Origin: an uncultured Candidatus Micrarchaeota archaeon
GTDB taxonomy: Archaea; Micrarchaeota; Micrarchaeia; Micrarchaeales; Micrarchaeaceae
Length of the DNA: 64,000 nucleotides
Assembly: GCA_963741095.1 (NCBI GenBank)
Contig: CAVUGN010000002.1
Location: 32,001 to 96,000, forward strand
Reading direction: 5' to 3'
Under the pieces are notes generated by a model. It worked only from the letters and a program-made list of their open reading frames with translations. It was not told where the DNA came from and searched no databases. The translations under genes were made by a program, and so were the position numbers. The number at the start of each line of letters is the position of its first letter. The stretch's first letter is position 1. Positions 808 to 19,812 of the stretch are shown here, in pieces.

Positions 808-2796
808 ATGAAATTGAACCTGTTCGCTCTTGTCGTGCTTTTGCTGTTGTCGTGCCAGTTTTCGGCGTTTTCCCACGCCAGCAGCAACGTAGTGACCGCA
901 AACGTCATCGTGATCTGCCCGTTCTCCCTGACTGCCAATGTCCTGCCGGCCTATGCGATCGGCAACACGATAAACCTGAATTACACCCTGTTCACGCAGG
1001 CCCAATGCAGCATACCCACCCTGCAGGGCAGCTTTGCATTGGAGTACAGCGGCAACAACGTGCAGGTGCTGTACGATTCGCTGACTTCGACGGCCACGCA
1101 GACGCCGCTGCTGTACAACATTCCACCGATAAATTCGATGACCCTGGCGCGCGACAGCTACAAGGCCGTGTTCGATTTCTCTGCCTACGGCACCAGCAAC
1201 CAGAGCGTGCAGAGCTTCGTCCTGGTCAGCCAGTCCAACATCATAATAACGAACTTCACGGTCAGCCCAAGCTCAGTCAGTGTCGGCTCCCCGCTGACCT
1301 TCACGGTCAACGTCCTGAACGACGGAGAGCTCGCATCAGGGCCGATAGGCATGAACATAATCATAACCGGGCCGCAGAGCTTCACGGTGACCGAGTCGGC
1401 TAGCCCTCTCTCGCCGGGCCAGAGCGAGATCCTGACGTTCGTGCTGAGCAACGTTACCGGAGCTGCGGGAGACTACTCTGCGAGCACGTACGCGACGTTC
1501 ATCTACAACAACGCCGCCATAGAGTCCAATCTGTTGAACGCTGCATACACGGTTACGCAGCAGCCCGCGCCGTCACAGGGCGCGCCACCCTCGCCGACAT
1601 CGGTCATCACGGTCATACCGAAACTCCAGTTCACGCAGGTGCCCTTCTACTCCTCGCTCGCGCTGGGCTCGATAGAAGTAACATCGCTGGGACTTCAGGA
1701 CCTGGCGAATGGGAACATAACCGTCAGTCTCGGAGTGCCGCTGGCGTTCGACAACATATTCGACGTCTCGGCTCACAGCATTTACCTTGTTCCCAGCGAG
1801 AGCGTGTTTGTGCAGCTGGTCTTCGATTCCAGCCACGTGAGCGCGCCCGGCACGTACGTGGTGCCCTTGAACGTGAGCGTGAGCGCGGCGAACAGCGTGA
1901 CGGTGGGCACCACCCAGTACCTGACTTACATAGTGTCGAAGAATTCCAGCAGCGTGAGCATGTACAGCCAGATACAGACCGCGCGCAGCAATGCGACAGT
2001 GACCACCTCGATCATCGGCGCAAGGAACCACAGCCTGACGAACGCCACGCTGGTCACCATGCTGCCGCTCTCCGTGGTCAGCAACGCCTCGCAGATAAAG
2101 ACTTATGGATTGCCGGCGACGATAACCTTCGGTACCGGCGGCCCCCAGATAAACTGGCTGGTTCCATACCTGCCGCCGGGCAAGGGCATAACGCTTTCGT
2201 ACACCATAAACAACGCGCAGAACGTCGGGCTGCTCTCCGCGGTGCAGACTCTTCTGGTCGTGCAGTCACAGCCCACGCCCACCAGCATACTGAAGGTCGT
2301 CAGCATACAGACGCCGACATTCTACGCAAACACGCTGAACAAGGTATCCGTTGGGGTGCTGTACACCGGGACAACCATGCAGGGCGTGAGGTTCACCCTT
2401 ACGACTCCCGGCACTGCGACAGTGCTCAATCCGATTCAATTGGTGAATGCAAGCCCGAACCAGCTGCTGCAAGAGACCTTCAACATCAGAACGGAGAATG
2501 CGACCGGCACTTTGCTGCTGAATCTTGGCATAGAAGCACAGAACGCGAGCATCAACTACACGCTGCCGGTGATCGTAATGCAGAAATTCACCCCGACGAC
2601 GAGCACGATACCGCAGGTGACCACGACCCCGATAAACGTTGCGAAGTACGTGCCGTGGGCTGTTGGGGCCGCAGTCGTGGTCGCGGCCGCATACCTGGTC
2701 CGCGGCATAAGAAGAAGGCCGAGATACCAGCCTGGAAGAGCAAAGGAATTAATAAGGATTAGAGAGCAAATAAAGCGCAGCGATGAGCATGCCTAA
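808..2796 (+). CDS. Secreted multi-Ig/CARDB-like surface protein with C-terminal membrane anchor; putative filament base/anchor
   Basis: Class I signal peptide (…FSHA|S), beta-rich S/T/N-rich domains including CARDB-like 'FTVNVLNDGE', many N-x-S/T sequons, C-terminal TM followed by RRRPR; mature N-terminus SSNVVTANVIVIC resembles the N-terminus of the 9226 subunit. Confidence 0.75.
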   Translation: MKLNLFALVVLLLLSCQFSAFSHASSNVVTANVIVICPFSLTANVLPAYAIGNTINLNYTLFTQAQCSIPTLQGSFALEYSGNNVQVLYDSLTSTATQTPLLYNIPPINSMTLARDSYKAVFDFSAYGTSNQSVQSFVLVSQSNIIITNFTVSPSSVSVGSPLTFTVNVLNDGELASGPIGMNIIITGPQSFTVTESASPLSPGQSEILTFVLSNVTGAAGDYSASTYATFIYNNAAIESNLLNAAYTVTQQPAPSQGAPPSPTSVITVIPKLQFTQVPFYSSLALGSIEVTSLGLQDLANGNITVSLGVPLAFDNIFDVSAHSIYLVPSESVFVQLVFDSSHVSAPGTYVVPLNVSVSAANSVTVGTTQYLTYIVSKNSSSVSMYSQIQTARSNATVTTSIIGARNHSLTNATLVTMLPLSVVSNASQIKTYGLPATITFGTGGPQINWLVPYLPPGKGITLSYTINNAQNVGLLSAVQTLLVVQSQPTPTSILKVVSIQTPTFYANTLNKVSVGVLYTGTTMQGVRFTLTTPGTATVLNPIQLVNASPNQLLQETFNIRTENATGTLLLNLGIEAQNASINYTLPVIVMQKFTPTTSTIPQVTTTPINVAKYVPWAVGAAVVVAAAYLVRGIRRRPRYQPGRAKELIRIREQIKRSDEHA

Positions 2797-3595
2797 GCCT
2801 TACAGCATAATAGTTTCATCGCAGAAGGGTGGAGTCGGCAAGACGACCATCTCGGTCAACCTTTCAACAGCGTTGGGGCAGAGTGGGTACAAGGTATTGT
2901 TGGTTGATGCTGATTATTCCAATCCGTGCGTCGGCTTCCATCTCGGCCTCGAGAACGCGAATGCCGGCCTGAGGGCAGTTGTCACCGGCAGGGCGAAACT
3001 CGAGAATGTGGTTGTCCTGCACAACCCCACAGGACTGCACGTGCTCACCGGGGAGATAACCGCGAAACCGTTCCATCCCAGCGCGTCCCAGCAGAAATAT
3101 CTCCGCGAGAGCCTGGAAAAAAGCGGTTATGATTTCGTGATAATAGACATGCCGCCTGGCGCGGAGGATCTTGAGGAGGTAGAGGCCTTTTGCTGCGAGA
3201 ACAGCCGACAGGTCATAATCGTCCTGACTCCGGAGATGTCCGCATGCTCGAGCGCGATAAGGCTTGCGCAGATCTACGAGAAGCAGCACATACTCCACAA
3301 CATGGTCGCCAACAGGGTCAAGAACAAGGCCTACGAGTTGAGCGTCAGTGAGATAGAGGACGCGGTGGGAGAAGGATTGATGGGTGTCTTGCCGGAAGAC
3401 GAGAACGTCCCGATAAGCATAGCGCAGCACATACCTGTTCTGCTGTTGAAGAACCGGTCCGGCTTTTCCGGAGCGATAAAGAGCCTTGCCAGAAGGGCAT
3501 CGAACCGCGTAGGCTACGAACCGGGCGAGGAAAGGTACGTGCCGCATAGGGGCGGAGGCTTCTTCGCGTGGCTGATGCGGCTGTTCGGCAGATAA
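2783..3595 (+). CDS. minD: MinD/ParA family ATPase
   Basis: Deviant Walker A 'QKGGVGKTT', 'LVDAD', 'IIDMPPG', C-terminal amphipathic membrane-targeting helix 'GGFFAWLMRLFGR'. Confidence 0.85.
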   Translation: MSMPKPYSIIVSSQKGGVGKTTISVNLSTALGQSGYKVLLVDADYSNPCVGFHLGLENANAGLRAVVTGRAKLENVVVLHNPTGLHVLTGEITAKPFHPSASQQKYLRESLEKSGYDFVIIDMPPGAEDLEEVEAFCCENSRQVIIVLTPEMSACSSAIRLAQIYEKQHILHNMVANRVKNKAYELSVSEIEDAVGEGLMGVLPEDENVPISIAQHIPVLLLKNRSGFSGAIKSLARRASNRVGYEPGEERYVPHRGGGFFAWLMRLFGR

Positions 3596-6600: not shown

Positions 6601-9137
6601 GTTCGAGCCCTTTTGTCGTCAATGGAGTTGGCGCATGGACTTTCACAAACAACCAGCCGTTGCCGAGCGTGGATGCCCAAGGCGAAGTCGTGTACGGGAA
6701 CATCATCTACACCATAGGAGGTACGATAGGCGTCTCGTATTACAGTAATGCGGTCTACTATGCGCCGGTATCGGGCACAGGTGCTGGCGGTTGGACCGCG
6801 ACCAAGAATTACCCGATAAACGTGTTATTTCAAGGCGGGAGTTGCGTTGCATTTAACCAAAACATATATTGTGTGGGCGGCGAAGACAATTTGGGGCATA
6901 TTTTTAATGCGGTTTATTACGCCCCGATACTTGCCAGCAATGCGCTGGGGTCTTGGACCGCGACCACGAATTATCCGCTTAACGGATTGGAAGTGGATTG
7001 CTTGCTATCCAGTAGCAACATCTACTGCGTAGGTGGCTTAGGCACGTCCCCAAAATACAATGCAGTATACTACGCGCCCATACTCGCAAGCAATGCGCTG
7101 GGGTCTTGGACTGGGGTAACCAACTATCCCGTGAATACAATGGACGCGAGCTGCAATTTGTATGGCAATAACATCTATTGTGTAGGTGGCTTCGCTGCCC
7201 TCAGAACCAACTCAGTATACTACGCGCCCGTACTTTCCAGCAACGCGCTGGGGTCTTGGACCGCGACCACGAATTATCCCATAAATACGGTTACCCCATG
7301 CGTTCAGTATAGCAACTCGATTTTCTGTACGGGTGGCAGCACGACGGGCCCCAACACGAATGCAGTATACTATGCGCCCATACTTTCCAGCAACGCGCTG
7401 GGGTCTTGGACCGCGACCACGAATTATCCGGTGAATGTAGCGAATGAAGGCTGCGTCGGCTATAGCAACGACATTCTCTGCGTTGGCGGGACTACGGGTA
7501 CCGGGAGCACTTACACTAATTCCGTTTACTATGCGCCCATAACGGGCGCTGGTGGTGCCGGGGCAAGCGTAGGCGCTTGGACGCTTGCAGGGACCACGAC
7601 GATATCTGTTTCCAATTTCCCCACATGTGTGCTGTCAAACAGCATAATCTATTGTTTGGGCGGCGAGCAGCTTGTGGGAGGGGTTACATATAACAGCGTA
7701 TACTACGCGCCCATACTCGCAAGCAACGCTCTTGGCACGTGGAACCAGGCGGCGACAAATTACCCGTTCTCGCTTGGTTATATTAGCTGCTCCACATACA
7801 ACAGCGTGATTTACTGCGTGGGTGGATTGACCATTGGCCTTCATGGAGTCAACAGCGTCGAATACGGCCTGGCGCAGAGCACAGGGGTGAGCACGTGGAC
7901 GCCAGGCGGCAACTATCCGTTCTCCTTGTACTCGACGTCATGTGTCACGGATAGCAATATGATCTATTGCATTGGTGGCAGCGGTAGTACAAGTGGGCCC
8001 ACTTATAACAGCGCTTATTATGCCCCGATATATGCTAACACTGCAATAGGTAACTGGGTAAGTATGACGTCTTATCCCGTGAATGCCAACCCCGATTGCA
8101 TGGCGTACAACAACGACATCTATTGCATAAGTGGGCCAAATAACAACATTTACTACGCGCCCATACTTGCCAACGCTGCAATAGGCACATGGTCGTCAGG
8201 CACGGCAAATTATCCGTTGGTTTCGGCGGGCGGCTGCGTTGCATACAGCAACGACATCTTTTGTACGAGCGGAAGCAGCGATGGGCTATATGATGGTGGT
8301 TCAAACTCCATTTATTACGCCCCTATCTCTAGCACCGGAGTTGGCGCCTGGACGTATCTAGTAACACCCCTCTTCCCGATGAATACGTTCGAGCAATACT
8401 GCGCCACATTCGGCAATGCGATATACTGTGGGGGTGGAGTGACACAAGGTGGCACCCAATTCTGGCCCCAGTTCTACTGGGCGTATTTGACCGGCACTAC
8501 GGTCTCGAGCGGCAGTAGCAGCACGATTTTCGGCACGCCGCCGTACAGCTATTATTATTATGTTGCAAACGCCATCAACAACTTCGTCATGCAGATCGGG
8601 TCCGACGTCAGCGACTTCGCGACGTCCAACACCTTCGCCTGGACGATACCCTCGAACATGGGCGGCAACGTCCTTGTCGCGAACGTCGTCATCACGGACA
8701 GCGCGACCACGCAGGCCACCGCGAACTCCATCTTCAGCAACGTATTAACTATACCGGGTGCCGGCAGCGCGTGCCTGACAAATTCCGCTCCGAGCATGAT
8801 AAATTTCGGCAGCATCAACCCGACAAACAGCGTTAACACCCAGAACCAGATCATTGATACCAACTCCGGGAGCGTTGCAGCATACATGTATGTGTTCGGC
8901 GGCAACTGGATTGTGACAAGCTCGCAGCTGAACGGCTTCGGCATAAGCAACACCACCTGGGCCACGGGCAGCGGCGTGTCTTATGCATCTGCAACAAAGC
9001 TGAGCACAAGCCCGTACAACACCTTGCAATTGGTACCTGCAGGAGGCAGCAACTCGGTGTGGTTCGGCCTCAATATACCGCCTGCTACGACGGCAACGAC
9101 ATTCAACCAGATCATAACGATAGAGAATTCGTGTTGA
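3660..9137 (+). CDS. 1825-aa secreted adhesin-like protein: Ig/PKD-like domains, PGF-pre-PGF-like domain, 12 Cys-rich Kelch-like repeats, C-terminal pilin-like domain ending IENSC
   Basis: Signal peptide; S/T linker; 'VYQFVQIN…NFTVPSAWI…WNPLTT…FYSATSNSFSAYVVG' (PGF-pre-PGF-like); repeats 'YYAPI…GxW…NYP…C…IYCVGG'; no C-terminal TM. Confidence 0.8.
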   Translation: MERKATLLCALLAAVLLSIGISAQGNVTSSLNTTSAATSVNLTMSNDPVAYGETQVLTAALLGGAGPFIYNFLVYNASGVLEASVLTPYISPSNYSFPVLQQAAWGFGVFTANVVAIDSAYPGIPVANSILYVVQSTTTTSTASSTSSSASTSTSTSSTVSLATLPGNAMNATNSISPTMPHNVISVGTGAKATLAYQNGGNKGMVMIQGNAIRLAASRSVLREVDVGLAATNLTVNVSITNQSQVPVSFAQPAASVYQFVQINGSIANSVSTDIDQYITSVTYNFTVPSAWIGSMGTNAASILLFKYSPSLQTWNPLTTTLIGSNQTSYFYSATSNSFSAYVVGFVTGSGSATANTVSNTIVTGGYAYATYFWGGAISTVGRNSIGATATTSSWTVDGNYLVRSTTASATSNFNTVVIGHNSLNSAAFTTNFIKSANGNVVNAIIAGIGANVIFANGKAYSSNGVGTAATVLTFNAAANSFIVLVYASAGTVMSAFSTNAPGSSLAVNVVSASGSVDQVAIQTVNSLTSAVGSFNAVISTATSASKSMVAYVFPPYAVNLVDNPATGSIMTSNMVGGPNTYASGQTINVIGTQSINAIVPTGYRFASWTVSSSANLIVTSTSTQNTFLTVEGNGILTANFAPPTVAITSGPTNAIADVGQYEYFTATVTNGNGQPYTYNWIASNAVSGALIGGANMLFTSCTLATNALGWIVGANEPTNSPVAWNVIVTDTLVTYNSVDSGGYGANTALAAGLLTESNTVIDNTQYSLLTANPSGGSMGAGSSYNWFANTVGNPNCNSANVVGGQTLKTYLANPSSTTYYSYNVIDSASTKTTVCNLAGNSITVQSTPSVSTPVPSNVLLDSGQMVVYNTILTSPSGGSSFTVNLVNMGSAGLASSLTGQSAGTLVFVANTPAVGTDTFEVVAADGSTTSPFVFTSGVNTIVVNTAMNPQLSSTPALPATLNTGQTITFNAQVGPLAMGGSSPFVVNGVGAWTFTNNQPLPSVDAQGEVVYGNIIYTIGGTIGVSYYSNAVYYAPVSGTGAGGWTATKNYPINVLFQGGSCVAFNQNIYCVGGEDNLGHIFNAVYYAPILASNALGSWTATTNYPLNGLEVDCLLSSSNIYCVGGLGTSPKYNAVYYAPILASNALGSWTGVTNYPVNTMDASCNLYGNNIYCVGGFAALRTNSVYYAPVLSSNALGSWTATTNYPINTVTPCVQYSNSIFCTGGSTTGPNTNAVYYAPILSSNALGSWTATTNYPVNVANEGCVGYSNDILCVGGTTGTGSTYTNSVYYAPITGAGGAGASVGAWTLAGTTTISVSNFPTCVLSNSIIYCLGGEQLVGGVTYNSVYYAPILASNALGTWNQAATNYPFSLGYISCSTYNSVIYCVGGLTIGLHGVNSVEYGLAQSTGVSTWTPGGNYPFSLYSTSCVTDSNMIYCIGGSGSTSGPTYNSAYYAPIYANTAIGNWVSMTSYPVNANPDCMAYNNDIYCISGPNNNIYYAPILANAAIGTWSSGTANYPLVSAGGCVAYSNDIFCTSGSSDGLYDGGSNSIYYAPISSTGVGAWTYLVTPLFPMNTFEQYCATFGNAIYCGGGVTQGGTQFWPQFYWAYLTGTTVSSGSSSTIFGTPPYSYYYYVANAINNFVMQIGSDVSDFATSNTFAWTIPSNMGGNVLVANVVITDSATTQATANSIFSNVLTIPGAGSACLTNSAPSMINFGSINPTNSVNTQNQIIDTNSGSVAAYMYVFGGNWIVTSSQLNGFGISNTTWATGSGVSYASATKLSTSPYNTLQLVPAGGSNSVWFGLNIPPATTATTFNQIITIENSC
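6620..8495 (+). repeat. Twelve intragenic Kelch-like beta-propeller blade repeats (~50 aa, ~150 bp period)
   Basis: 12 units counted in translation; 49-bp identical DNA blocks at 7231-7279 and 7381-7429, near-identical copy at ~6935-6978. Confidence 0.85.
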
Positions 9138-9191: not shown

Positions 9192-9205
9192 GAAGGGTTT
9201 TTAAT
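9192..9205 (+). promoter_or_regulatory. Putative BRE/TATA box for the pilin-like subunit gene
   Basis: GAAGGGTTTTTAAT just upstream of ATG 9226; similar GAAAGGGTTTTAAG lies upstream of gyrB (~40278-40291). Confidence 0.45.
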
Positions 9206-9225
9206 TATTAGTTATGAAACCGTAA

Positions 9226-10215
9226 ATGGCGATCAGGATGGAAGAAATGCACAGTAGACCGATTTATGCAATACTTTTAATAGGGGTATTAGCGGCAGCC
9301 ATGGGGATATTCCTGGCTGTTCAGGCTATGCCGTTGGCGATGGCCGGAACGACGACAAATACGGTGACGGCCAACGTGAACGTGCAGGGCATCTGCTGGA
9401 CTGCGGCGCTGCCGAATCCGGCAACATTCGGCAATGTGAACCCCAGCACCGCTTCGGTTACGAACCTGCAGGTCACCGATAACGACGTTGGCGGCAACAT
9501 GGCGGCATTTCTTTGGATAAATGCAAACGGCAACATAAACAGCGGCAACTGGCAATGGGGAACCAACACGATACTCGTCGGCAACACGGTCTACAACGCG
9601 ATCAGCCAGGGCGCATACCTCGGCAACACGCTGACAACCACGCCCACGAACACGAACATCGCCCTGGCTGCACCAACGCTTGGGGCGCCGACAAACTCTG
9701 TCTTCATATACTTCGGACTGAACATACCTGGCGGCACTCCGGGGGGATTGTACACACAGGCATTGGTCTTCAACAACATATGCACCACGACAAACGCGAA
9801 CACCCTGAGCCTGACTGCGAACGTGCAGCAAGTATGCTACACTACGACGACTCCGAACGCGATAACGTTTGGCAACATGTACCCTGGTACTACGTACCCC
9901 GCAAACGTTGTCGTTACGGATAACGATGTCGGCGGGAATGTAGGAGCGGCGATGTACGTCGAGGGTCAGAATCCAAATTGGGTGTTCGGTTCAAACAACA
10001 TAGCGGTCTCGAATACAGTGTACAACGCGATCAGCCAGAGCACGTACCTTGGCAACGCGCTGACCACCTCGTTCGTGAATACGAACATTGCCATAGCCGC
10101 ACCCACACAGGCTACCCCGTACGCAACGGCCAATGTGTACTTCGGAATGGCTGTGCCAGGGGGCACTGTTGCGGGTCTGTACACAGAGAACATAATCATC
10201 GAGAATTCGTGTTGA
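9226..10215 (+). CDS. Secreted tandem two-domain pilin/fimbrial-like subunit ending IENSC
   Basis: Signal peptide (AMA|G); two homologous ~145-aa domains (TANVxxxxC…TFGN…VTDNDVGGN…NTVYNAISQ…YFG…PGGTxxGLYT…N-[IS]-C); similar to the C-terminal domain of the 3660 protein. Confidence 0.75.
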   Translation: MAIRMEEMHSRPIYAILLIGVLAAAMGIFLAVQAMPLAMAGTTTNTVTANVNVQGICWTAALPNPATFGNVNPSTASVTNLQVTDNDVGGNMAAFLWINANGNINSGNWQWGTNTILVGNTVYNAISQGAYLGNTLTTTPTNTNIALAAPTLGAPTNSVFIYFGLNIPGGTPGGLYTQALVFNNICTTTNANTLSLTANVQQVCYTTTTPNAITFGNMYPGTTYPANVVVTDNDVGGNVGAAMYVEGQNPNWVFGSNNIAVSNTVYNAISQSTYLGNALTTSFVNTNIAIAAPTQATPYATANVYFGMAVPGGTVAGLYTENIIIENSC

Positions 10216-10224
10216 AGTGCTAAC

Positions 10225-10989
10225 ATGAAAAATCTATTACCTGCGCTGTTGGGCAGCCTTTTATTGATTTTGGTATTGTTTGGGGCGTCTTATGCCCAGA
10301 TTGGAGAGGTCGCAGGACCGTTGAATTTCAACGTTAGCATTGGGACCAGACAGTCGCTGGGCTTGACAATAGTGAATGGAGGCAGTACCGGTTCCATCTC
10401 GTACATGTCGACGCCGACCATAACCACCGTGATACCTAATTCTACAACTCCGCAAGTGACCGTAACACCGATGAATGGGACCATACCGCCGCGCTCGATG
10501 GTCCATCTGAATGTGACAGTGTACATGCCAGGCGGCAAGAACAGGGCAGGAATGGTGTGGAACGGGTACATATCCACAGTCGAATTGACAGACAACTCTG
10601 TTACCAGCGGAGCGAACATACAGGCAGGGGCGCTCAAGATAATGACGATAACTGCTGCGCCACCCAAATTCCAGGAGATATACATACTAATCGCAGCGCT
10701 TGCCGTCACCTGCGTGGGCGTAGGAGCCTATCAGGTAGTGAAGAGGCAACGCGCCAAGAAGGTTGCTAAGAGGGCCAGGACGAAGGCTGCGGTGAAGGTA
10801 AAGAAGGCCGCGACTGTTGCATCGGCAAAGGTGAAGAAGGCCGAAGGGAAGGCAGCGGTGAAGGTAAAGAAGTCCGCGGCCACCGCATCGGCAAAGGTGA
10901 AGAAGGCCGAAGGGAAGGCAGCGGTGAAGGTAAAGAAGTCCGCAAGAACCGGAAGGGCAACAAGAGGAGGGAGGCGGGCCAGAAGGTAA
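10225..10989 (+). CDS. Membrane-anchored single Ig-like domain protein (PapD/DUF916-like pattern) with Lys/Ala-rich cytoplasmic tail
   Basis: Signal peptide; 'VTVTPMNGTIPPRSMVHLNVTVYMP…WNGYIST…GANIQAGALKIMTIT'; TM 'IYILIAALAVTCVGVGAY'; KKA-rich repeats. Confidence 0.65.
   Translation: MKNLLPALLGSLLLILVLFGASYAQIGEVAGPLNFNVSIGTRQSLGLTIVNGGSTGSISYMSTPTITTVIPNSTTPQVTVTPMNGTIPPRSMVHLNVTVYMPGGKNRAGMVWNGYISTVELTDNSVTSGANIQAGALKIMTITAAPPKFQEIYILIAALAVTCVGVGAYQVVKRQRAKKVAKRARTKAAVKVKKAATVASAKVKKAEGKAAVKVKKSAATASAKVKKAEGKAAVKVKKSARTGRATRGGRRARR
10783..10943 (+). repeat. 66-bp tandem repeat (~2.4 copies) encoding 22-aa Lys/Ala-rich units
   Basis: GCGGTGAAGGTAAAGAAG starts at 10789, 10855 and 10921. 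Confidence 0.9.
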
Positions 10990-11097
10990 CCGCATCCTCT
11001 CTTACCCCAAGGGCTATTCCTAAAGACAGCCTTGCTGAGTAGACGCAGGAAGGTTTAGAGCTATAAATAAAGCCTATGAAGATTATCTGGTGAGGTC

Positions 11098-11712
11098 ATG
11101 AGAAAAATAATCGTACAAAATATGGTATCATTGGATGGCTTCATAGCAGGACCTAATGGGGAATTTGACTGGCCTCTTGCGGACCAGGAATTTGAGCAAT
11201 ATGCATTGGAAAGACTAAACACTTATGATACCTTTCTACTCGGACGTGTGACTTACCAGATGTTTGCAAGCTACTGGCCTACTGCAATCACTAACACCAG
11301 CGGGACTTTGAGCAAAGAAGGGGTAAAATTCACCGTGCCAAAAGAAGTATCTGACATACACACGGAAGTTGCAAATAAAATGAATTCTTTGCAGAAGATT
11401 GTTTTCTCAAAGACACTCAAAAATGCCGACTGGAACAATTCTAAATTATTTGTTCAGGTAGTGCCCGAGGAGATAATGAAATTGAAACAACAGAATGGCA
11501 AGGATATGGTCATGCTTGGTAGTGCAGACCTTATATCAACATTTACGAAGTTGGATCTAATAGACGAATATCATCTTTTCGTAAATCCCGTTGTTTTAGG
11601 CGACGGAAAGCCTATGTTCAAAGACCTGAATGAAAGGCTTAAACTGAAGCTCACAAAAACAAAGACGTTTAAGTCTGGACTGGTTGGACTTTATTACCAG
11701 CCAGTAAAGTAA
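11098..11712 (+). CDS. Dihydrofolate reductase family (RibD C-terminal-like) protein
   Basis: 'MRKIIVQNMVSLDGFIAGPNG', 'LLGRVTY', 'LIDEYHLFVNPVVLGDGKPMF'; visibly AT-richer than flanks. Confidence 0.9.
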   Translation: MRKIIVQNMVSLDGFIAGPNGEFDWPLADQEFEQYALERLNTYDTFLLGRVTYQMFASYWPTAITNTSGTLSKEGVKFTVPKEVSDIHTEVANKMNSLQKIVFSKTLKNADWNNSKLFVQVVPEEIMKLKQQNGKDMVMLGSADLISTFTKLDLIDEYHLFVNPVVLGDGKPMFKDLNERLKLKLTKTKTFKSGLVGLYYQPVK

Positions 11713-11839
11713 CCCCTTTTGGAAAAGGCATGTACGCCCCACCCCGTCAACCGGCAGTAAACTCGAGATCGCGAGAATATCCCGCGAAAATGGAGAAGGG
11801 GTGCAAAAATCTGTTTGGTATATAACCCCTGATGCGGTA

Positions 11840-11946
11840 TGGGCCCGGTGAGATTTGAACTCACGACCTACGGCTTTCCTGGTGGGACCTTCACTGAAAG
11901 CCCCACGTATAAGACCGTCGCTCTAACCAGGCTGAGCTACGAGCCC
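11840..11946 (-). tRNA. tRNA-Ile(UAU) with 32-nt intron at 37/38 (intron ~11876-11907)
   Basis: Reverse complement GGGCTCG TA GCTC AGCCTGGTTA GAGC G ACGGT CT TAT A [intron] A GCCGT AGGTC GTGAG TTCAAAT CTCAC CGGGCCC A; 75-nt mature cloverleaf. Confidence 0.88.
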
Positions 11947-11998
11947 ACAACTTTAATGGTAATGATAATCTAATCAAGGTATTTAATCCGTTGGCTGA

Positions 11999-14900
11999 TC
12001 AGGGCATGGTGTAGTTGTTGTGCACCCATGAAGGCTTTGGCGGCACCGGAGGCAGCCCGCCGGTGTAGTTGTTCAGCGCGAATATCCTCACCGCATAGGT
12101 CCCGTTGACTAGGTTGACCCCGGTGGCGTTCGTGACCGGGTAGACCTGTGTGAAGCCCGGCAGGTTGCCGAGCATGAAGCCCTTGTAGTAGTTCGAAGTG
12201 TAGAAGCCTGATGGCGCGTTATTCACTATGCCGGTGGCGTCGGGCAGGTATATCATGAGGAACTCGACAAAAGGCGTGCCGCTGACGTTCACCACGCCGA
12301 GATAGTATGAGGATTGGATGACCGCATTCATCTTCACGCCGTTGGAGCTGTAGACCCCGAGAACGCCGCTCTTGTTCGGGTTCGGGCTGACGCAGACCGT
12401 GTTGTTGGAGAGCGAGCTGCCGATGACCAGATAGGCCTTGGCGTAGATGCTGTTGCTGGTTGAGATGGAGCAGTAGTTGTTTATGCTCTGCTGCGTCTCG
12501 TTGGGCACGAACACAGATAGGGGTATTAGCGCGTACTGCGGGTCGTTGTCGAGCTCGCACTGCGAGGTGCCGAGCACGTAGGGAACCCCCTGCTGTGCTC
12601 CCTGGGCCATCGCGTAGGCCTCTGAGGTCGCATTGACGTTTATGCAGGCCAGGAAGTCGAGTGCCTGCCATTTCGATATGAGGTCCTCGTCCATCAGCAC
12701 GTACTTCGTTTGATTGGAATTCATGAAGTGTGCAAGGCTTTGTGGGGTGTAGTTGTACTTCTGTCCCAGCACGAGGTTCGCCGCGGCCGCGTAGTCTTCT
12801 GCCGCTACTGCGTTGTCGCCGCGGAGGAAGGCGTTGGCGTTGCCGAACCAGTTGATCCAGTCGCCATAGTCCCACCAGGACAGCACTCTCGGGGCGTTGG
12901 TGTTTATGTTGGTCTTTATCCATGCCATGGTGTTGAGCCAGTATTTCGGCACCGTGTTGCAGAATATGCTCTCTCCCAGGACGTTGTTGTTGTTTGTGAG
13001 CGTGGTGCAGGCGGTCGTTGGCGTGGTGCTGAAGACGAAGAGCGCCCTGAATGAGGACAGCATCGATGCGCTCTCACCATAGAAGAACATGCGCTGCGCT
13101 AATCCGATGAACGAGAGTATCAGCAGCAGTATCATCAATCCGAGGAACAGGTAGTAGACCGTGCTCGGCTTCTTCTGCGAATAGTTGCGCAGCGCGAGGT
13201 ACGCGAGCAGTATTGACGCGACGATCGCGCCGAACATGAAGAAGACCCCGACCATCAGGACGAGGTTGGCTAGCGTGCTGTGCTCGGCGTAGAAGCTGCT
13301 GCTTATGTGGCCCGCCTCGTCGTACGCAGACCTTACCTTCAGCTTGAAGTTGTCCTGCGCGAGGTACATGACCTCACCGAGGACGATGCAGAACATTATT
13401 ATGTAGGCGACGCCGAGGTGCGGGAGGTACTTGACTTCAGAGAAGCCCGCGAAGAGCAGTGGCAGGGCTATCGCCATGTAGAGTATGCCCGTCCTGTTCC
13501 GCCTGTAGATTATGCTGATTGCCAGCAGGATGATCGACGCTGCAGAGATGATCCATACCAGGAGCGGGACGCCGAAGATGTTCGCGCCTATCGCGCCGAA
13601 GCCCTGGGCGCCGAAATTATAAAGCAAACCGGTCGGGATGTATTCCTGCACCGTCATGAAGAGAGGTTTTGAGGGCGTTGTGAACCTTGCGCTCAGGTTA
13701 AGGTAGGACTTGATCGGCCCGCCCAAAGGCGTCAGCAGCAGCACGGCCAGCGCGACTACGATTATGGCGAATATGACCAGCGCTCTCGATGCGGCTTTGG
13801 AGTACTTGCTCGCGGTGCCGATGAACTCGGATATCTTGGGCGCAAGCATGTTCGACAGGTATTCCGCGACCACGACAAACAAAAGGCTGAAGAGCGGGAA
13901 GGCGACTATCACGGGTATGTCCAGCAGGTTGGGTATCCTGTTGGCGAGCGTGGAGCTGTAGGGGTTGTAGACCGCGTAGAAAATTATTATGATCGCCAGC
14001 ACCCAAGCATTCATTGTGTAGAAATCCTTCAGGTTCTCCTTCCTTGTTATGCCGATTATGCCCTGAAGTACTATGTAAGCGGCAAGTATGCCGGTGGTGA
14101 CCGTGTAGTAGTGTGCGCCGAGGAAGTTCGAGGCGAAGGCGATGCCCGCAAGGATCGCAAGTCGCTTGTCCTTCGGATTCCTGACCGCAAGCAGGTAGCT
14201 TGCGAGGAAGAAAAACAAGGCGAATATGCCCCACGGTTCGAGGAGCTGCTCCCCGGCGATGAATGTTGTGTACAATACGGGCATCATCATGGCTAGCGCT
14301 GCGCCGATGAGCCCTATCTTCTCGTCATATTCGTGGTACAGCAGCTGGAAGACCACGAAAACAAGCAAGGCAGCAGTTATTGGAGGATAGAAGCTGCCGA
14401 CGTAGCTCATAAGGTTGGTGTTGAATGTCGCGTAGTGCGGCCCCAGCACATTCGCCAGGTCGTACCAGTAAGCTTCGAGGTAAGGTATCAGAGGTTCCAC
14501 CCTGAGCACCGTGCCAGCTGCCACGCCGGGCCATGCCGAGGGCGAGAGCAGGACCTGATAGCCGTAGGTGATCACTGATTCCGTGTTGAGCATGTCGAAG
14601 TATGGGTCGAACTCGAAGAATTTCGGCGCCACGCTGATGTTGAACATCCTTGTAGCGAAGCTGAGAATCATTATTATCAGAAGCACGGTCCAGACGGCCC
14701 ACATCTTGTCGCTTTTCTTCGACTCCTTTGCGGGTGTGGTTACGGGTTGTATGTCCTTGAGCAGCAGCTGCTCTTCGCGCATGTGCTCCTCGAGAAGCCT
14801 GTTCTGGTCTTCGGTGTGCAGCGCGGAGATCTTGTCCTTCTCCTCTTTGGTGAGCCCCGATGCGAGGCGCATTTCTTCTTGCTGCTTCGAATGCAATGCC

Positions 14901-15322
14901 TTTTCCTCGTCTATGTGCCTACTGACTATCGCCTCTCCCTTCGGCATCATCGAGAGTATCTGCCTGGCGTCCTCGACGACGGTCTCGTTTCTCGATGGAT
15001 TTGCCTTGGGCTTGCCGGCGATGAGGGCCTTGAAGTCCTTGAAAACGCCTTCGGTGTAGCACAGCACCAGCCCCACCAGCGTCAGGAAGAGCACGTTGAC
15101 TGCGAAAAGCGTCAGAGAGAAGCTGAAGAAGTGTATGTAGTCCATCAGGTAGGATTCCAGCCAGGTGAGGGTAGCTGGTCCGATCAGGCCGAAGATAACG
15201 CCTATGACCGTTATCTCGAAAGCGTGCAGCTCTGTTTTTCTTAGAAGCGCGAAGGAGAGCAGCACTCCAGGAACTAGTATGGATAGGAACGCCACCAGTA
15301 TCGTTGCATCTATCCCGAACAT
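11999..15322 (-). CDS. aglB: Oligosaccharyltransferase AglB (STT3 family) with N-terminal extension
   Basis: 'FEFDPYF', 'TVQEY', 'SWWDYGDWI', 'DEDLISKW' DK-type motif, multiple TMs. Confidence 0.93.
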   Translation of the reverse strand: MFGIDATILVAFLSILVPGVLLSFALLRKTELHAFEITVIGVIFGLIGPATLTWLESYLMDYIHFFSFSLTLFAVNVLFLTLVGLVLCYTEGVFKDFKALIAGKPKANPSRNETVVEDARQILSMMPKGEAIVSRHIDEEKALHSKQQEEMRLASGLTKEEKDKISALHTEDQNRLLEEHMREEQLLLKDIQPVTTPAKESKKSDKMWAVWTVLLIIMILSFATRMFNISVAPKFFEFDPYFDMLNTESVITYGYQVLLSPSAWPGVAAGTVLRVEPLIPYLEAYWYDLANVLGPHYATFNTNLMSYVGSFYPPITAALLVFVVFQLLYHEYDEKIGLIGAALAMMMPVLYTTFIAGEQLLEPWGIFALFFFLASYLLAVRNPKDKRLAILAGIAFASNFLGAHYYTVTTGILAAYIVLQGIIGITRKENLKDFYTMNAWVLAIIIIFYAVYNPYSSTLANRIPNLLDIPVIVAFPLFSLLFVVVAEYLSNMLAPKISEFIGTASKYSKAASRALVIFAIIVVALAVLLLTPLGGPIKSYLNLSARFTTPSKPLFMTVQEYIPTGLLYNFGAQGFGAIGANIFGVPLLVWIISAASIILLAISIIYRRNRTGILYMAIALPLLFAGFSEVKYLPHLGVAYIIMFCIVLGEVMYLAQDNFKLKVRSAYDEAGHISSSFYAEHSTLANLVLMVGVFFMFGAIVASILLAYLALRNYSQKKPSTVYYLFLGLMILLLILSFIGLAQRMFFYGESASMLSSFRALFVFSTTPTTACTTLTNNNNVLGESIFCNTVPKYWLNTMAWIKTNINTNAPRVLSWWDYGDWINWFGNANAFLRGDNAVAAEDYAAAANLVLGQKYNYTPQSLAHFMNSNQTKYVLMDEDLISKWQALDFLACINVNATSEAYAMAQGAQQGVPYVLGTSQCELDNDPQYALIPLSVFVPNETQQSINNYCSISTSNSIYAKAYLVIGSSLSNNTVCVSPNPNKSGVLGVYSSNGVKMNAVIQSSYYLGVVNVSGTPFVEFLMIYLPDATGIVNNAPSGFYTSNYYKGFMLGNLPGFTQVYPVTNATGVNLVNGTYAVRIFALNNYTGGLPPVPPKPSWVHNNYTMP

Positions 15323-15997: not shown

Positions 15998-16690
15998 CTA
16001 ATTCTTTGCCGCCTCTGCCTTCGCGGTCTCCGTCTTCTTCTCCGCCTGCTTCTCTGCTACCGGCTTCTCAGCCTTCTTTTCCGTTTTGACTGCGGGTTTC
16101 GCCGCTGCTTTCGGAGCCTGCTTTACCGTCGGCTTCTTCGCGTTGTTCTTGCTCTCGATCATGCTGAAGAGCTTGACTATCTTGGTCGATTCCTTGCCCA
16201 GCTTGCCCTCGTACTTGCTGCTCAGGCCGATCTCGACCTTCGAGAACTCGAGATTGCTCTTTCGCATTGAAGTGTAACCGTATCCACCGACTGTGACTGC
16301 CCTCGCTCCCTTCGGCGGCGACCTCGGCGCCGTTAGCGTCTTGTTTGCGCAGGCGTGCACGACATGCATGAGCTCAGGTTCGTAGCCCTTGTTCTTCGCG
16401 TTGGCGTACGCGTTGGCGAGGACCTTCCTTACTATCGCGGCGCACTTCTTCGGGTACCTTCCGGTCTTCCCGCCAAGCTCGTGCCTCGAACCCATGTACC
16501 TGTTCCACCTGTTGTACTTTATCGGCTTTTCGCCGCTTGCGGTCTCGTCCAATATTTTCATCGCTGCCGGGACGCTCCGGTACCTTATGGCGTCGCACAC
16601 GGCGCAGAGATCCTTGAAGCTGGCGTTCAGGTCGTTCGCTGTCGCGAAGACGACGTCAGTTCTGTCGAGATTGAATGAGTATGCCATCAT
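15998..16690 (-). CDS. rpl22: 50S ribosomal protein L22 with Lys/Ala/Glu-rich C-terminal tail
   Basis: 'GRYPKKCA…LANAYANAKNKG'; position between S19 and S3; true start MMAYSF overlapping the S19 stop. Confidence 0.93.
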   Translation of the reverse strand: MMAYSFNLDRTDVVFATANDLNASFKDLCAVCDAIRYRSVPAAMKILDETASGEKPIKYNRWNRYMGSRHELGGKTGRYPKKCAAIVRKVLANAYANAKNKGYEPELMHVVHACANKTLTAPRSPPKGARAVTVGGYGYTSMRKSNLEFSKVEIGLSSKYEGKLGKESTKIVKLFSMIESKNNAKKPTVKQAPKAAAKPAVKTEKKAEKPVAEKQAEKKTETAKAEAAKN

Positions 16691-17082
16691 TTCACCGCAA
16701 GGAACTTGCTGCCTCTCGTGGCCCTTATACCCGGAGCAGAGTGCCTGACCGGCTTTGTGCTGTATGAATATTCTCCCAGCCTGTGGCCGAGCATGTTTGC
16801 GGTTATCAGCACCGGCATGAACTCCTTGCCGTTGTGCACCGCGAACTTCAGGCCGATCCACGACGGTATTATCATCGCTTCCCTGACCTGCGTCCTTATG
16901 GGCTTGTCTATGCCCTTCGTCTTGTACTTCTCGACCTTTGCAAGCAGCTTCTTGTAGTCAATGCCGTTCCTCTTCATGCTCCTCCTTTGCCTTGACTTGA
17001 CCATCTTGAGGTAATCGGCAGTGGTCACTGTGTTCAGCTCCGTTGCCGTCTTCCCCCTATAAGCTACTCTTTCGATTGCCAT
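16687..17082 (-). CDS. rps19: 30S ribosomal protein S19
   Basis: 'VHNGKEF…MLGHRLGEY…HSAPGIRATRGSKF'. Confidence 0.96.
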   Translation of the reverse strand: MAIERVAYRGKTATELNTVTTADYLKMVKSRQRRSMKRNGIDYKKLLAKVEKYKTKGIDKPIRTQVREAMIIPSWIGLKFAVHNGKEFMPVLITANMLGHRLGEYSYSTKPVRHSAPGIRATRGSKFLAVK

Positions 17083-17086
17083 TTGA

Positions 17087-17797
17087 TTACCTCTTCTTCC
17101 TTCCTACGCGGCTTGCAGCGATGTGGCCGACCTTCCTTCCTGGAGGCGCGTTCCTCGAGATCATGCTGCTCCTTCCCTTGTGGTGGCCCTTTCCGCCGAA
17201 CGGATGGTCAACCGCATTTGTGTGGACGCCTCTTATCGTAGGCCATGTCCTATTGAGCGGGCGCATTATGTAATGGTTCTTTCCTGCCTTCATCAGCGGC
17301 GCTTCAGACATTCCGCCGCCTGCAATAACGCCCAGTTGGGCCCTGCATTCATTGTCCAGTACGACGTTTGACTTTGATGGCATGACTATTGTCGTGTTGG
17401 CTCCCAGGTGCGCCGACACATAGGCGACGCTGCCCGCGGCCCTCACGAACTTGCCCCCGTCTCCCGGAGTTGATTCGACGTTGAATATCGGCATTCCCTC
17501 AGGAACGTCCATTATCTTCACGACGTTGCCCAAGGAGAACTTCGCTTTGTCGCAGATCGTTATCTTGTCGCCTATTCTTATGCCTTCGGGCGCTAGCAGA
17601 TAACCCTTTGAGAAATTATCGTAAAGCACCTCTATGAGCGGCGCGGTGTGGCCGGTGTGGTTTATTATCCCGACGACCTCGCAGGTCGTACCGGCGGCCC
17701 TGCCGGAATAGTTGATGCTGAGGTCGAAGGTGTTGGGTTTCTTCGTGTAGACGTTCGAACCCTTTCCTCTCCTCTGTTGTCTTAGCTTCTTTCCCAT
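17087..17797 (-). CDS. rpl2: 50S ribosomal protein L2
   Basis: 'MGKKLRQQRRGKG', 'PGDGGKFVRAAG', 'NAVDHPFGG', 'PPGRKVGHIAA'. Confidence 0.97.
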   Translation of the reverse strand: MGKKLRQQRRGKGSNVYTKKPNTFDLSINYSGRAAGTTCEVVGIINHTGHTAPLIEVLYDNFSKGYLLAPEGIRIGDKITICDKAKFSLGNVVKIMDVPEGMPIFNVESTPGDGGKFVRAAGSVAYVSAHLGANTTIVMPSKSNVVLDNECRAQLGVIAGGGMSEAPLMKAGKNHYIMRPLNRTWPTIRGVHTNAVDHPFGGKGHHKGRSSMISRNAPPGRKVGHIAASRVGRKKR

Positions 17798-17799
17798 TT

Positions 17800-18057
17800 T
17801 TACACCAACTTCAGCTTTATCGCCACGTCGCTTGCCTTGTACCCCTTCGCCAACTTTATGTACGCCTTCTTGTAGTTCGTCGGCATGTTCGAGGTGCGCA
17901 CGCCTGCGACCTTCACGCTGAACAGCTTCTCGAACTCCGCGGCTATCTGGGTCTTGGTTGCCCTGTAGTCGACGACGTAGGTTATGACGTTGCTTTTGTC
18001 AATCACACTGACCGATTTTTCGGTTGCCAGCGGGTATTTTAACGTCGTCATGATCAT
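17800..18057 (-). CDS. rpl23: 50S ribosomal protein L23
   Basis: 'KYPLATEKS', 'KKAYIKL'. Confidence 0.95.
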   Translation of the reverse strand: MIMTTLKYPLATEKSVSVIDKSNVITYVVDYRATKTQIAAEFEKLFSVKVAGVRTSNMPTNYKKAYIKLAKGYKASDVAIKLKLV

Positions 18058-18845
18058 TGCACCTTGATGTTCTCTATCGCCCTGTTGAGGTTGTTGACCG
18101 CGCTCTCGCTCCATACAGTCATTCTTCCTGGAATGCCGCCCGGAGCGAGCAGGTTGACTGTCAGTTTTGAGACCTCGCAGACATCGACTCCGTGTATGTT
18201 CCTTGCCGCCTTCATAACGCTCGCCTCCTTTCCTACGACAAGAAGCAGTTTCCTTGAATAGATCCTCATCCTTGTTGATCTTCGCACCCCCTTTCTGATG
18301 TGCGGCTTCCTGTTCTCGTCCATGTAGTCCGACAGGCTGATGCTCTTCAGCACGGCCATCACCTCCTTGGACTTCTTGAGCGACTCTATCTCGTCAGAGA
18401 CGACTATCGGCAGGTGGATGTTTGATTGTGACATCTTTGTGCTCTTTATTGCAGTTGCGGAAACCGCGCTTGCAATCGCCAGCTGGTATTCCTTGTTGTT
18501 TATCTTCTCCGTCAGTATCTTTTCGACGATGTGTGGGTGCGCCCTCCTTCCCTTTGTTGAAGATGGAATTCTCTTGACCTTGCCCTGCACCCCGCCTCCC
18601 AGCTTCTCTCTTGGCCTTATCGCAATTCCCATGTGCCTGCCCGTTCTGTAGGATCCCATGGCGCCGAAGTAGGCGGCGCTGGTCTGCATACCCGCCAGCC
18701 TCATGTGGCCCTGGGGCTGCAGTTTGTAGGAATTTTCGGCGAGCACAGCCCTCTGTATGAGCTCCGGCCGCACTCCTTTGGAGAATGCGCTCGGCAGCTC
18801 TATCGAGTGCTTGATCTTGCCTTCGAGCGTTAGAACGTTTGCCAT
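18054..18845 (-). CDS. rpl4: 50S ribosomal protein L4
   Basis: 'VRPELIQRAV', 'GRRAHP', 'LLAPGGIPGRMTVWSE'. Confidence 0.96.
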   Translation of the reverse strand: MANVLTLEGKIKHSIELPSAFSKGVRPELIQRAVLAENSYKLQPQGHMRLAGMQTSAAYFGAMGSYRTGRHMGIAIRPREKLGGGVQGKVKRIPSSTKGRRAHPHIVEKILTEKINNKEYQLAIASAVSATAIKSTKMSQSNIHLPIVVSDEIESLKKSKEVMAVLKSISLSDYMDENRKPHIRKGVRRSTRMRIYSRKLLLVVGKEASVMKAARNIHGVDVCEVSKLTVNLLAPGGIPGRMTVWSESAVNNLNRAIENIKVQ

Positions 18846-18849
18846 TGAT

Positions 18850-19812
18850 TCACTTCGCTATGTAGCTTACCTTCGATTCCTTGATGCCCCTTGCGTTCCT
18901 GTTCCTTATCGATTTCCTTATGCGCACCAGCCTCTTCGCCGGACCCGGCACAGAGCCGTTGAGCATCACGTAGTCGTTCCTTATCTTCCCGTAGTTCTGG
19001 AATCCTTCCGGAGGGGTTATTGTCGCGTCCCCCCTTGAACCTATTTTAAGTATTCTTTTGTTGTGCTCTGTTCGGTAGTTGAATCCGAGCTGTCCTGCTT
19101 GAGGTATTGTGTACAGAACCTTCGGCACTCCGAACGGACCCAGTGATCCGACGTGCCTCGTCTTTCCGGTTGCCTTGTGGTATTGCACGGCAATGCCGAA
19201 CCTCTTGACCGGGCCCTGCCATCCCTTTCCTTTGGATATGGATGTAACATCGACAAATTCGCCGCTCTTGAAAACATCAGCCGCCTTGAGCTCCTTTCCG
19301 AGCATTCCTGCGACGAAATCGAACTTCTCTTCGATGGTCTTGCCGCCGACGTGCGATTCGAACCTCGAGGTGTGGTGCTGCTCTGCGCCCATTCCCTTCG
19401 GGAACGCGGCCACAAGGGCGACCACATCGGTGAACTCGGCAATCTTTGATTTTATGAGCGCCACTTTTGTCTCGTCGTTCTTCACGACCTTCATGTGGAG
19501 CTTCTTCGCCGAGGCGCTGTTTATGACCTCGAGCGTCGACACTTGATAATGGGTGTTGGGATCCTTTGAGTACAGGCGCATGCCGTAGACCTCCATGGTT
19601 GGGATTTCCAGGAGCGTGCAGGGCCTGCTCACCTCTGCGCCCTTCGATGCGGCGCCGGTGTCGTCGGTGACCATCGCGTGGGTCATCCCGACCTTGAATG
19701 CGATTATGCTTGAGAGCGTGGGCTCCTTGATGTAGGACGGCGAAGTGCGCAGCCTGGGAAGCCGTGTCTGGGCGCGTCTGTGATGCCAATATTGCATTGA
19801 GCCTTTGTGCAT
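18850..19812 (-). CDS. rpl3: 50S ribosomal protein L3
   Basis: 'FKVGMTH', 'SKGKGWQGPVKRFG', 'GSVPGPAKRLVRIR'. Confidence 0.96.
   Translation of the reverse strand: MHKGSMQYWHHRRAQTRLPRLRTSPSYIKEPTLSSIIAFKVGMTHAMVTDDTGAASKGAEVSRPCTLLEIPTMEVYGMRLYSKDPNTHYQVSTLEVINSASAKKLHMKVVKNDETKVALIKSKIAEFTDVVALVAAFPKGMGAEQHHTSRFESHVGGKTIEEKFDFVAGMLGKELKAADVFKSGEFVDVTSISKGKGWQGPVKRFGIAVQYHKATGKTRHVGSLGPFGVPKVLYTIPQAGQLGFNYRTEHNKRILKIGSRGDATITPPEGFQNYGKIRNDYVMLNGSVPGPAKRLVRIRKSIRNRNARGIKESKVSYIAK

Follow-up and report, generated by a model that had tools for sequence, protein, structure and literature searches.

A tandem two-domain protein as the candidate shaft of a proposed donor-strand-complemented surface fibre in Micrarchaeota

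Can a secreted archaeal protein made of two fused pilin-like domains complete one of them with its own linker and leave the other to be completed by a neighbouring subunit? The question is raised by a gene for a 329-residue protein in DNA of an uncultured Candidatus Micrarchaeota archaeon (GenBank assembly GCA_963741095.1, contig CAVUGN010000002.1, positions 32,001 to 96,000 of the forward strand; this stretch of 64,000 nucleotides is called the window, and coordinates are positions in it). A first-pass annotation, made from the letters of the DNA alone, had described the protein as a covalent head-to-tail dimer in which a strand between the domains mimics the strand that one subunit would donate to the next. 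That interpretation is largely borne out: completion of domain 1 in cis and coupling of cysteines within a domain are supported by the results below, and we infer that domain 2 is completed in trans. We propose, as a probable reading that leaves real room for doubt, that the protein forms the shaft of a donor-strand-complemented surface fibre, found mainly in Micrarchaeota and built without an usher.

Tandem duplication and cis complementation of domain 1

The mature protein consists of two homologous units. Unit 1 (9346-9783) and unit 2 (9784-10212) share 50% identity over 145 aligned columns (E 2e-45), a similarity far outside chance. The strings that had been read as domain boundaries are all present, as domain 1 ends in QALVFNNIC and continues through TTTN into ANTLSLTANVQQVC, and domain 2 ends in ENIIIENSC immediately before the TGA stop codon. 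The free N-terminal strand that precedes the core of domain 1 is called S1 (GTTTNTVTANVNVQGI), and the linker strand that precedes the core of domain 2 is called S2 (ANTLSLTANVQQV with its TTTN turn; Table 1). The covalent tandem is also borne out by gene content elsewhere. At 13 of 47 related loci from species-representative genomes, all of Micrarchaeota type, the equivalent slot is occupied by a free single-domain subunit of 152-200 residues (L007, L022, L023, L026, L027, L031-L034, L036-L038 and L046; the count leaves out the near-duplicate loci L035 and L039). These subunits have two or three cysteines, two in all but two of them, and from their presence in the same slot we take the two-domain protein to be two fused copies of a unit able to work alone.

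A structure model was computed with AlphaFold2 from a 63-row alignment of the family (predicted local distance difference test, pLDDT, 95.8; predicted template modelling score, pTM, 0.85), and residues are given in mature numbering. In this model the last strand of domain 1 (134-145) is followed by a five-residue turn (Cys146-TTTN) and by S2 as a strand (151-160), and the two form a hairpin. Residues 26-31 (ATFGNV) form a strand in domain 1, no strand is assigned to the equivalent residues of domain 2 (173-178), and the last strand of domain 2 is short (283-287). Because domain 1 holds pairings that are absent from domain 2, the two homologous domains are not equivalent, and S2 is the extra strand. 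Mature residues 1-19, which comprise S1 and Cys17, lie in no strand; the outcome that the annotation had set against its own proposal, an N-terminal strand folded back into its own domain, is not seen.

Covariation was measured as mutual information over 95 distinct two-domain sequences (effective number of sequences, Meff, 70). Values above 0.15 were found for 32 of 1690 pairs between S2 and domain 1 vs. 8 of 1628 between S2 and domain 2, and the partners of S2 were F28, G29, N30, N32 and T137-V141. Among 568 registers, antiparallel pairing of S2 with residues 134-145 (i+j = 293, a hairpin about residue 146-147) ranked second, behind a trivial local register, and parallel pairing with residues 26-32, the ATFGNV strand, took ranks 3-4. 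The rival register, in which S2 lies parallel to the last strand of domain 2, ranked 488. Completion of domain 1 in cis by the linker strand is thus upheld by the DSSP assignment of the model and by the covariation registers, and in the model S2 behaves as the canonical last strand of an immunoglobulin (Ig)-like domain, supplied from behind.

When the model was compared with the PDB using Foldseek, the best matches included a donor-strand-complemented CfaE-CfaB fusion (3f83; E 5e-6, TM-score 0.54). Other pilin matches were CsuE (6fjy_B), LpfD (5afo), CfaE, self-complemented CsuA/B (6fm5) and SafDAA-dsc (5y9h). The modelled fold is pilin-like, though not uniquely so. Two family assignments were tried and rejected, as the matches of homologues to SCPU (one homologue, E 0.004, below cut-off) and to the GH123 N-terminal domain lie at or below the cut-off and span the last strand only. 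Assignment to type IV pilins or archaellins was rejected as well: the mature model is all-beta, with no helix of at least four residues, and has no pilin family match.

The cysteines of the precursor are residues 57, 186, 204 and 329 (window 9394, 9781, 9835 and 10210). The earlier count of exactly two per domain is accurate for this protein and does not extend to its family, in which the domain-1 pair is found in 16 of the 63 aligned sequences. The remaining 47 combine Ile, Val or Leu with Asn at these positions and none has a single Cys; to be present or absent jointly is the behaviour of partners in one disulfide. C17-C146 (residues 57-186 of the precursor) is also the strongest covarying pair of the whole protein. 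The domain-2 pair is invariant (63/63), and every tabulated pilin-like open reading frame (ORF) and giant protein in the loci has a C-terminal Cys. An invariant pair and universal terminal cysteines would be compatible with subunits linked mainly by intermolecular disulfides of the terminal cysteines rather than by strand insertion. Against this, the two cysteines of domain 1 always come and go together, their covariation is that of partners within one domain, and their absence from 47 of 63 sequences means that they make no general link; we regard linkage by disulfides as very improbable. Of the two roles that the annotation had offered for the cysteines, cross-links between subunits are therefore disfavoured and intradomain staples are favoured by the alignment.

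A tree of individual domains (FastTree, 124 columns) showed domain 1 sequences clustered, with 6 changes vs. 51 after shuffling, yet not as one clade. In the same tree, the window's eight-protein clade (with P0003-P0010) has its domain 1 and domain 2 sequences in one group (16 rows, support 91), which lies within the general domain-1 group. As far as a tree of only 124 columns can indicate, this is a hint of gene conversion or re-duplication between domains in the window's lineage.

Domain 2 and the proposed head-to-tail polymer

In the assembly that we propose, Sec export and removal of the signal peptide would leave a mature chain in the order S1, domain 1, S2, domain 2, each domain being an Ig-like sandwich without its own last strand. 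By forming a hairpin with the last strand of domain 1 and lying parallel to ATFGNV, S2 would make domain 1 complete in cis. Because the chain ends at the closing cysteine of domain 2, that domain would retain an open groove, and S1 of the next subunit would fill it to give a head-to-tail polymer. A disulfide from the first to the last residue of a domain core would clasp the end of the groove, as an optional feature of domain 1 and an invariant one of domain 2. At the membrane, the open groove would be capped or primed by a membrane-anchored PapD-like protein encoded by the next gene. We infer the insertion in trans, the polarity of the polymer and the roles of the neighbouring proteins; domain 1 is the part of the scheme for which the strand partners were read out above.

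Registers for S1 were predicted by transferring those of S2 through the domain offsets, which predicts antiparallel pairing of S1 with the last strand of domain 2 (i+j about 289-290). Register 289 ranked 4 of 552 (z 2.6) and register 290 ranked 25, and parallel pairing of S1 with the ITFGNM strand of domain 2 fell at ranks 16-86. Pairing in cis, with S1 parallel to the last strand of its own domain 1, ranked 157. We take the signal between S1 and domain 2 as suggestive. Mean pairwise identity was 0.56 for domain 2, 0.53 for S1, 0.47 for domain 1 and 0.37 for S2, and within S1 the residues A9, V13 and V11 are kept in 63, 62 and 56 of 63 sequences, respectively. High conservation of both S1 and domain 2 suits an interface that serves several partners. 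Contact between S1 and domain 2 of one chain looks infeasible, judged from the topology, in which S1 exits domain 1 opposite domain 2. A complex prediction with three mature copies of the subunit scored 0.12 against a mark of 0.42 and counts neither for nor against the polymer. Completion of domain 2 by S1 of the next subunit appears to be the best reading of the conservation, the modest covariation and the gene context.

The conserved cassette and alternatives to a fibre

A word-indexed search recovered 66 relatives of 280-357 residues; the few that are named are hypothetical proteins of Micrarchaeota or 'Marsarchaeota' metagenome-assembled genomes. A profile search of 1.84 billion cluster representatives gave 756 clusters at E<=1e-3, 277 at 1e-10 and 86 at 1e-30. 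The best 150 of the 756 clusters include proteins of ~310-340 residues (two domains), ~150-200 residues (one domain) and ~500-1600 residues, and in the long ones the match always reaches the last residue; the remaining shorter or intermediate members of these 150 are probably partial. By genome, a match was present in 79 of 301 sampled within the phylum (a tally that includes one unpublished genome, G029), with a concentration in the window's family (41 of 74) and its sister family (22 of 54). In the window's own genome (1.08 Mb) the domain family is represented by one subunit gene and by the C-terminal domain of the giant next to it.

The 47 loci were compared by tblastn and by their ORFs. 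Gene order in the cassette is conserved: a CARDB-type protein (~660 residues), a ParA/MinD ATPase, often a giant protein (730-2057 residues), one to three pilin-like genes and a homologue of the PapD-like gene at 10225-10989. In 36 of the 37 loci with room for it, the PapD-like gene is the immediate neighbour behind the last pilin gene, the exception being a cut giant ORF. A giant gene is directly upstream in 12 of 25 loci, and in related loci the upstream ATPase gene is conserved. The window's giant matches the subunit in its C-terminal domain (BLASTP E 5e-11; profile E 9e-27), and all listed giants end in a pilin-type domain. Candidate roles follow from the parts that each protein has. The giant, with an acceptor domain only, would be the tip; the subunit, with donor and acceptor, the shaft; and the CARDB-type protein, with a donor strand and a transmembrane helix only, the anchor. 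Some genomes have extra giants with the same terminal domain at loci without a pilin gene (L040-L045 and others), which could be alternative tips for one shaft.

The CARDB-type protein has a signal peptide, 15 N-glycosylation sequons (N-x-S/T), a transmembrane helix at its C-terminal end, and a basic tail. Directly past the signal peptide it reads ...VVTANVIVICPF, and across 16 homologues of the protein this S-like strand has A31, C37, P38 and F39 without exception, with V33 and V35 close to invariant. When this family was aligned with the pilin family by hhalign, the sole match was between that strand and S1 (19 columns, E 0.001, probability 21%). Within their first 90 residues, 25 of 52 pilin-like proteins carry a strict S motif, as do 14 of 16 CARDB-type proteins; it was found in none of 18 giants or 42 PapD-like proteins. 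A genome-wide scan for the motif returned, besides the pilin and the CARDB-type protein, one 799-residue membrane protein and two spurious-looking ORFs. The former (G000, contig C1:1400-3799, minus strand) has a hydrophobic N-terminal segment, the sequence TVNANVIV, a sequon-rich ectodomain, a transmembrane helix and a cytoplasmic domain of ~200 residues; its motif may be due to chance or may mark a further fibre partner.

In the AlphaFold2 model (pLDDT 83) of the protein encoded downstream of the subunit, a signal helix is followed by a sandwich of eight strands (26-145) and a long helix that contains the transmembrane segment and the tail. Foldseek matched this protein to the ASH domain of OCRL (2.3e-7), to PapD-like domains of CEP192 and HYDIN, to MSP, and to the fimbrial chaperone FaeE, alone and pilin-bound (2.4e-5 to 6e-5). 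Its profile matched PDB sequences of Hydin (1.8e-8) and CFAP65 (3.8e-6), and the Pfam models ASH, fn3_5 and Cep192_D6 gave matches below the cut-off only. By fold and by profile the protein belongs to the PapD-like/ASH/MSP superfamily, with an s-type Ig sandwich. Its mature N-terminus, LGExAG, is almost invariant. The cytoplasmic tail (10700-10989) is a Lys/Ala/Val-rich repeat that contains SAKVKKAEGKAAVKVKK twice and was modelled as a long helix; the tails of the homologues are all Lys/Arg-rich and vary in length.

Several observations weigh against a fibre of this kind. The strand partners were read from the DSSP string and from covariation, which come from one alignment and are not independent. 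The covariation between S1 and domain 2 is modest, with three unrelated registers equal or higher. In the Foldseek comparison, scores comparable to those of the pilins were also reached by a sialidase, the VesC protease, the GH123 N-terminal domain and ciliary proteins, and the TM-scores of the subunit's matches are 0.24-0.54. The subunit matched no Pfam or NCBIfam model, and the pilin-family profile found nothing below E 0.2 among PDB sequences. The PapD-like protein has an Ig fold of a common type, with eukaryotic ASH/MSP domains making up most of its matches. CARDB-type and ParA genes are both upstream in 13 of the 23 loci with at least 3.5 kb of sequence there, and the CARDB-type gene alone in 3 more. 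The signal-peptide cleavage site is putative, placed from the hydrophobic segment and the alignment of mature ends.

Some of these points would fit a monomeric, non-polymerising two-domain protein at the surface or secreted, such as an adhesin module or S-layer accessory, in which S1 is a flexible tail and domain 2 is stable by itself. The weak S1-domain 2 covariation and the non-pilin sandwiches among the fold matches speak for it. A free tail, however, should not rank second in conservation, with an invariant Ala and near-invariant Val residues, and the same motif recurs at the N-terminus of a different membrane protein family of the cassette. Nor does the subunit have an anchor of its own, and its domain 2 is left without the strand pairings that S2 gives to domain 1. 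We consider a monomer unlikely and keep polymerisation through S1 as the working model.

A different arrangement follows if the N-terminus stays uncleaved. The protein would then be a membrane-anchored two-domain stalk, with a distal domain-2 groove that takes a strand of another protein, for example the CARDB-type one. The hydrophobic leader segment is long (residues 10-41), and the same ambiguity is described for the S-layer protein of Micrarchaeum in the text cited (10.1101/2021.04.28.441871). In the family, however, small residues stand ahead of a polar, Ser/Thr/Asn-rich mature end, and 59 of 63 sequences have Ala in the column of the first mature residue. An S1 beside the membrane would have no reason to retain a strand motif common to another protein, and giants ending in the same acceptor domain would be left unexplained. 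Retention of the leader thus seems distinctly improbable, and cleavage to expose S1 is preferred. Judged by the N-termini of homologues, the real start may be the in-frame ATG at 9238.

Table 1. Features of the subunit gene and its cassette in the window
Feature	Position	Strand	Comment
CARDB-type secreted protein, 662 residues	808-2796	+	Weak CARDB match; proposed membrane anchor or terminator
S-like strand VVTANVIVIC	889-918	+	Mature N-terminus of CARDB-type protein
ParA/MinD-type P-loop ATPase	2783-3595	+	Overlaps CARDB gene end; Pfam AAA_31 1.7e-21, CbiA, ParA
Giant secreted protein, 1825 residues	3660-9137	+	PGF-pre-PGF and Kelch matches; proposed tip adhesin
C-terminal domain of giant, pilin family	8772-9134	+	Cys1705 to C-terminal Cys; end ITIENSC
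TATA-like box TTTTTAATTATT	9198-9209	+	In 88-nt gap between giant gene and subunit gene
Fibre-subunit precursor ORF (proposed role)	9226-10215	+	329 residues plus stop; two tandem ~145-residue domains behind leader
Sec-type signal peptide, residues 1-40 (putative)	9226-9345	+	Charged n-region, long hydrophobic core, ...PLAMA ahead of mature end
S1, free N-terminal strand GTTTNTVTANVNVQGI	9346-9393	+	Proposed donor for domain 2 of preceding subunit
Domain 1 core, Ig-like sandwich	9394-9783	+	Cys57 to Cys186
TTTN turn and S2 linker strand ANTLSLTANVQQV	9784-9834	+	Last strand of domain 1, in cis
Domain 2 core	9835-10212	+	Cys204 to C-terminal Cys329; proposed acceptor with open groove
PapD-like/ASH/MSP-fold protein, single domain, membrane-anchored	10225-10989	+	Proposed chaperone or assembly factor

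The TATA-like box that had been noted ahead of the subunit gene is present (TTTTTAATTATT), 17-28 nucleotides (nt) 5′ of the ATG at 9226 and 29-40 nt 5′ of that at 9238, and related loci are enriched for such elements. Of 46 pilin-like genes, 34 have a TATA-like hexamer in the 70 nt upstream, vs. 248 of 2000 (12%) random 70-nt windows from the same loci; it is often TATTTAAAT, 20-50 nt ahead of the called start. A promoter of its own is consistent with a major subunit. The PapD-like gene begins 9 nt past the subunit stop codon and is probably co-transcribed with it.

The mature subunit (9346-10212) is 15% Asn and 20% Ser plus Thr and has no sequon, whereas 7.9 would be expected and none of 300 shuffles reached so low a count. 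The 63 homologues together have 86 sequons vs. 516 expected; the giant of the window has 13. Lys, Arg and His are missing altogether from the mature chain and acidic residues number only 7, an extreme composition that is consistent with an acid-exposed surface protein.

Other features lie beyond the cassette. A tRNA of 107 nt on the minus strand (11840-11946; Rfam 58.7 bits, E 2.5e-12) presumably contains an intron, and ARAGORN found no tRNA in 10900-12100. A multi-pass membrane ORF (11999-15322, minus strand, 1107 residues) had no Pfam match at E 0.001 and contains WWDYGDW, which we take to resemble the WWDYG motif of AglB/STT3 oligosaccharyltransferases. A few kb downstream, a cluster on the minus strand (15998-19851) encodes the ribosomal proteins L22, L2, L4 and L3 (Pfam).

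Relation to known fibres and meaning for DPANN archaea

The closest likeness of design is to the Pam pili of candidate phyla radiation (CPR) bacteria, as described in a preprint (Troman et al. 2026, PMC13278184). These are thin fibres of an ultrasmall episymbiont, made of Sec-exported two-domain pilins with paired cysteines, in which an open Ig-like C-terminal domain is filled by a strand of the next subunit. According to the same text they have no usher, their PapD-like chaperones carry a C-terminal transmembrane helix, the tip is without a donor strand, and the anchor is an N-terminal strand plus a transmembrane helix. Set beside that description, the Micrarchaeota cassette matches part by part, including the two-domain pilin, the membrane-anchored PapD-like chaperone and the anchor of strand plus helix. 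We read this as a likeness of design, and homology is a separate matter. The two systems also differ in the strand used, as Pam pilins are described as donating the inter-domain linker, whereas the Micrarchaeota subunit spends its linker in cis and has the N-terminal strand as proposed donor. In addition, the domains of the Micrarchaeota subunit are duplicates of each other, its PapD-like protein has one domain where that of Pam is given two, and the host is archaeal.

Chaperone-usher pilins, together with engineered constructs (3f83, 6fm5, 5y9h), are the best structural matches. Their Ig-like domain that is missing its last strand is also the probable form of the subunit's domains, as the strand asymmetry of the model, the covariation and the fold matches fit it. 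They resemble the proposed fibre further in an N-terminal donor strand with alternating small hydrophobic residues and in a tip adhesin whose C-terminal domain is of pilin type. In domain 1 with S2 we see a natural counterpart of the laboratory fusion of a donor strand behind a pilin. The differences are that there is no sequence similarity, no usher and no outer membrane here, that the putative chaperone is membrane-anchored with a single domain, and that the subunit is a tandem. Among the cassette genes we found neither an outer-membrane usher nor a soluble two-domain periplasmic chaperone.

In the Elr/WxL pilus of Enterococcus, which belongs to a monoderm envelope, a membrane-anchored chaperone is reported to prime a pilin with an N-terminal donor (Sleutel et al. 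2026 preprint, 10.64898/2026.10.17.759780). The same preprint describes a variable tip adhesin with an invariant attachment module and a chaperone-pilin pair as the conserved core. All of these features, from the monoderm envelope to the chaperone-pilin core, are as we propose for the Micrarchaeota cassette, whereas the folds and families are others (WxL, DUF916/DUF3324) and the Elr/WxL pilus is described as anchored to peptidoglycan by sortase. WxL itself came up as a weak Atlas lead (score 0.83).

Among Archaea, the threads of Sulfolobus (PMC9715654) and the bundling pili of Pyrobaculum (PMC9245690) are described as dependent on Sec and signal peptidase I, with an N-terminal donor strand that enters the neighbouring subunit. 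As far as the cited texts go, no chaperone is identified for such filaments (PMC9715654; 10.64898/2026.10.17.759780). The bundling pilin AbpA is given as a TasA/PF12389 jelly-roll and the threads as having isopeptide bonds, and the Micrarchaeota subunit has neither. It gave no PF12389 match, and no TasA or AbpA entry is among the best 50 Foldseek matches listed. Threads and bundling pili are also described as N-glycosylated, while the Micrarchaeota subunit family is depleted in sequons about six-fold; unlike them, the shaft looks as if it is under selection against N-glycosylation.

In the literature searched we found nothing that links Micrarchaeota or DPANN archaea to a fibre of this kind. 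Thin filaments 'that could represent archaeal pili' are mentioned for the micrarchaeon ARM-1 (PMC11329633), and a pseudoperiplasm of 20-25 nm is given for a cultivated micrarchaeon (10.1101/2021.04.28.441871). A wider hypothesis is held tentatively, at somewhat less than an even chance. Micrarchaeota would make a host-contact fibre through a chaperone-assisted, usher-free donor-strand pathway, the first in Archaea with a chaperone candidate, with a membrane-tethered single PapD-like domain as primer, a giant exchangeable Kelch tip, a tandem shaft that is naturally self-complemented and a stalk whose N-terminal strand ends the fibre and anchors it across the pseudoperiplasm. The design would be common to DPANN archaea and CPR bacteria, the two great lineages of ultrasmall episymbionts, having either arisen or been kept in both. 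That a stalk of Ig-like domains, ~580 residues long, spans the pseudoperiplasm is speculation.

Donor-strand fibres themselves are known. What is probably new is their occurrence in a new family and in DPANN archaea, together with a tandem subunit that is self-complemented by nature and a membrane-anchored PapD-like protein as candidate helper. If the model is true, donor-strand fibres with a membrane-anchored PapD-like helper exist in Archaea, the 'self-complemented pilin' engineered by structural biologists is also used in nature, and DPANN archaea and CPR bacteria show a striking parallel. The attachment of DPANN archaea to their hosts is largely unexplained, and the cassette offers a concrete, testable candidate for it in which a tip, a shaft, an anchor and a chaperone can each be named.

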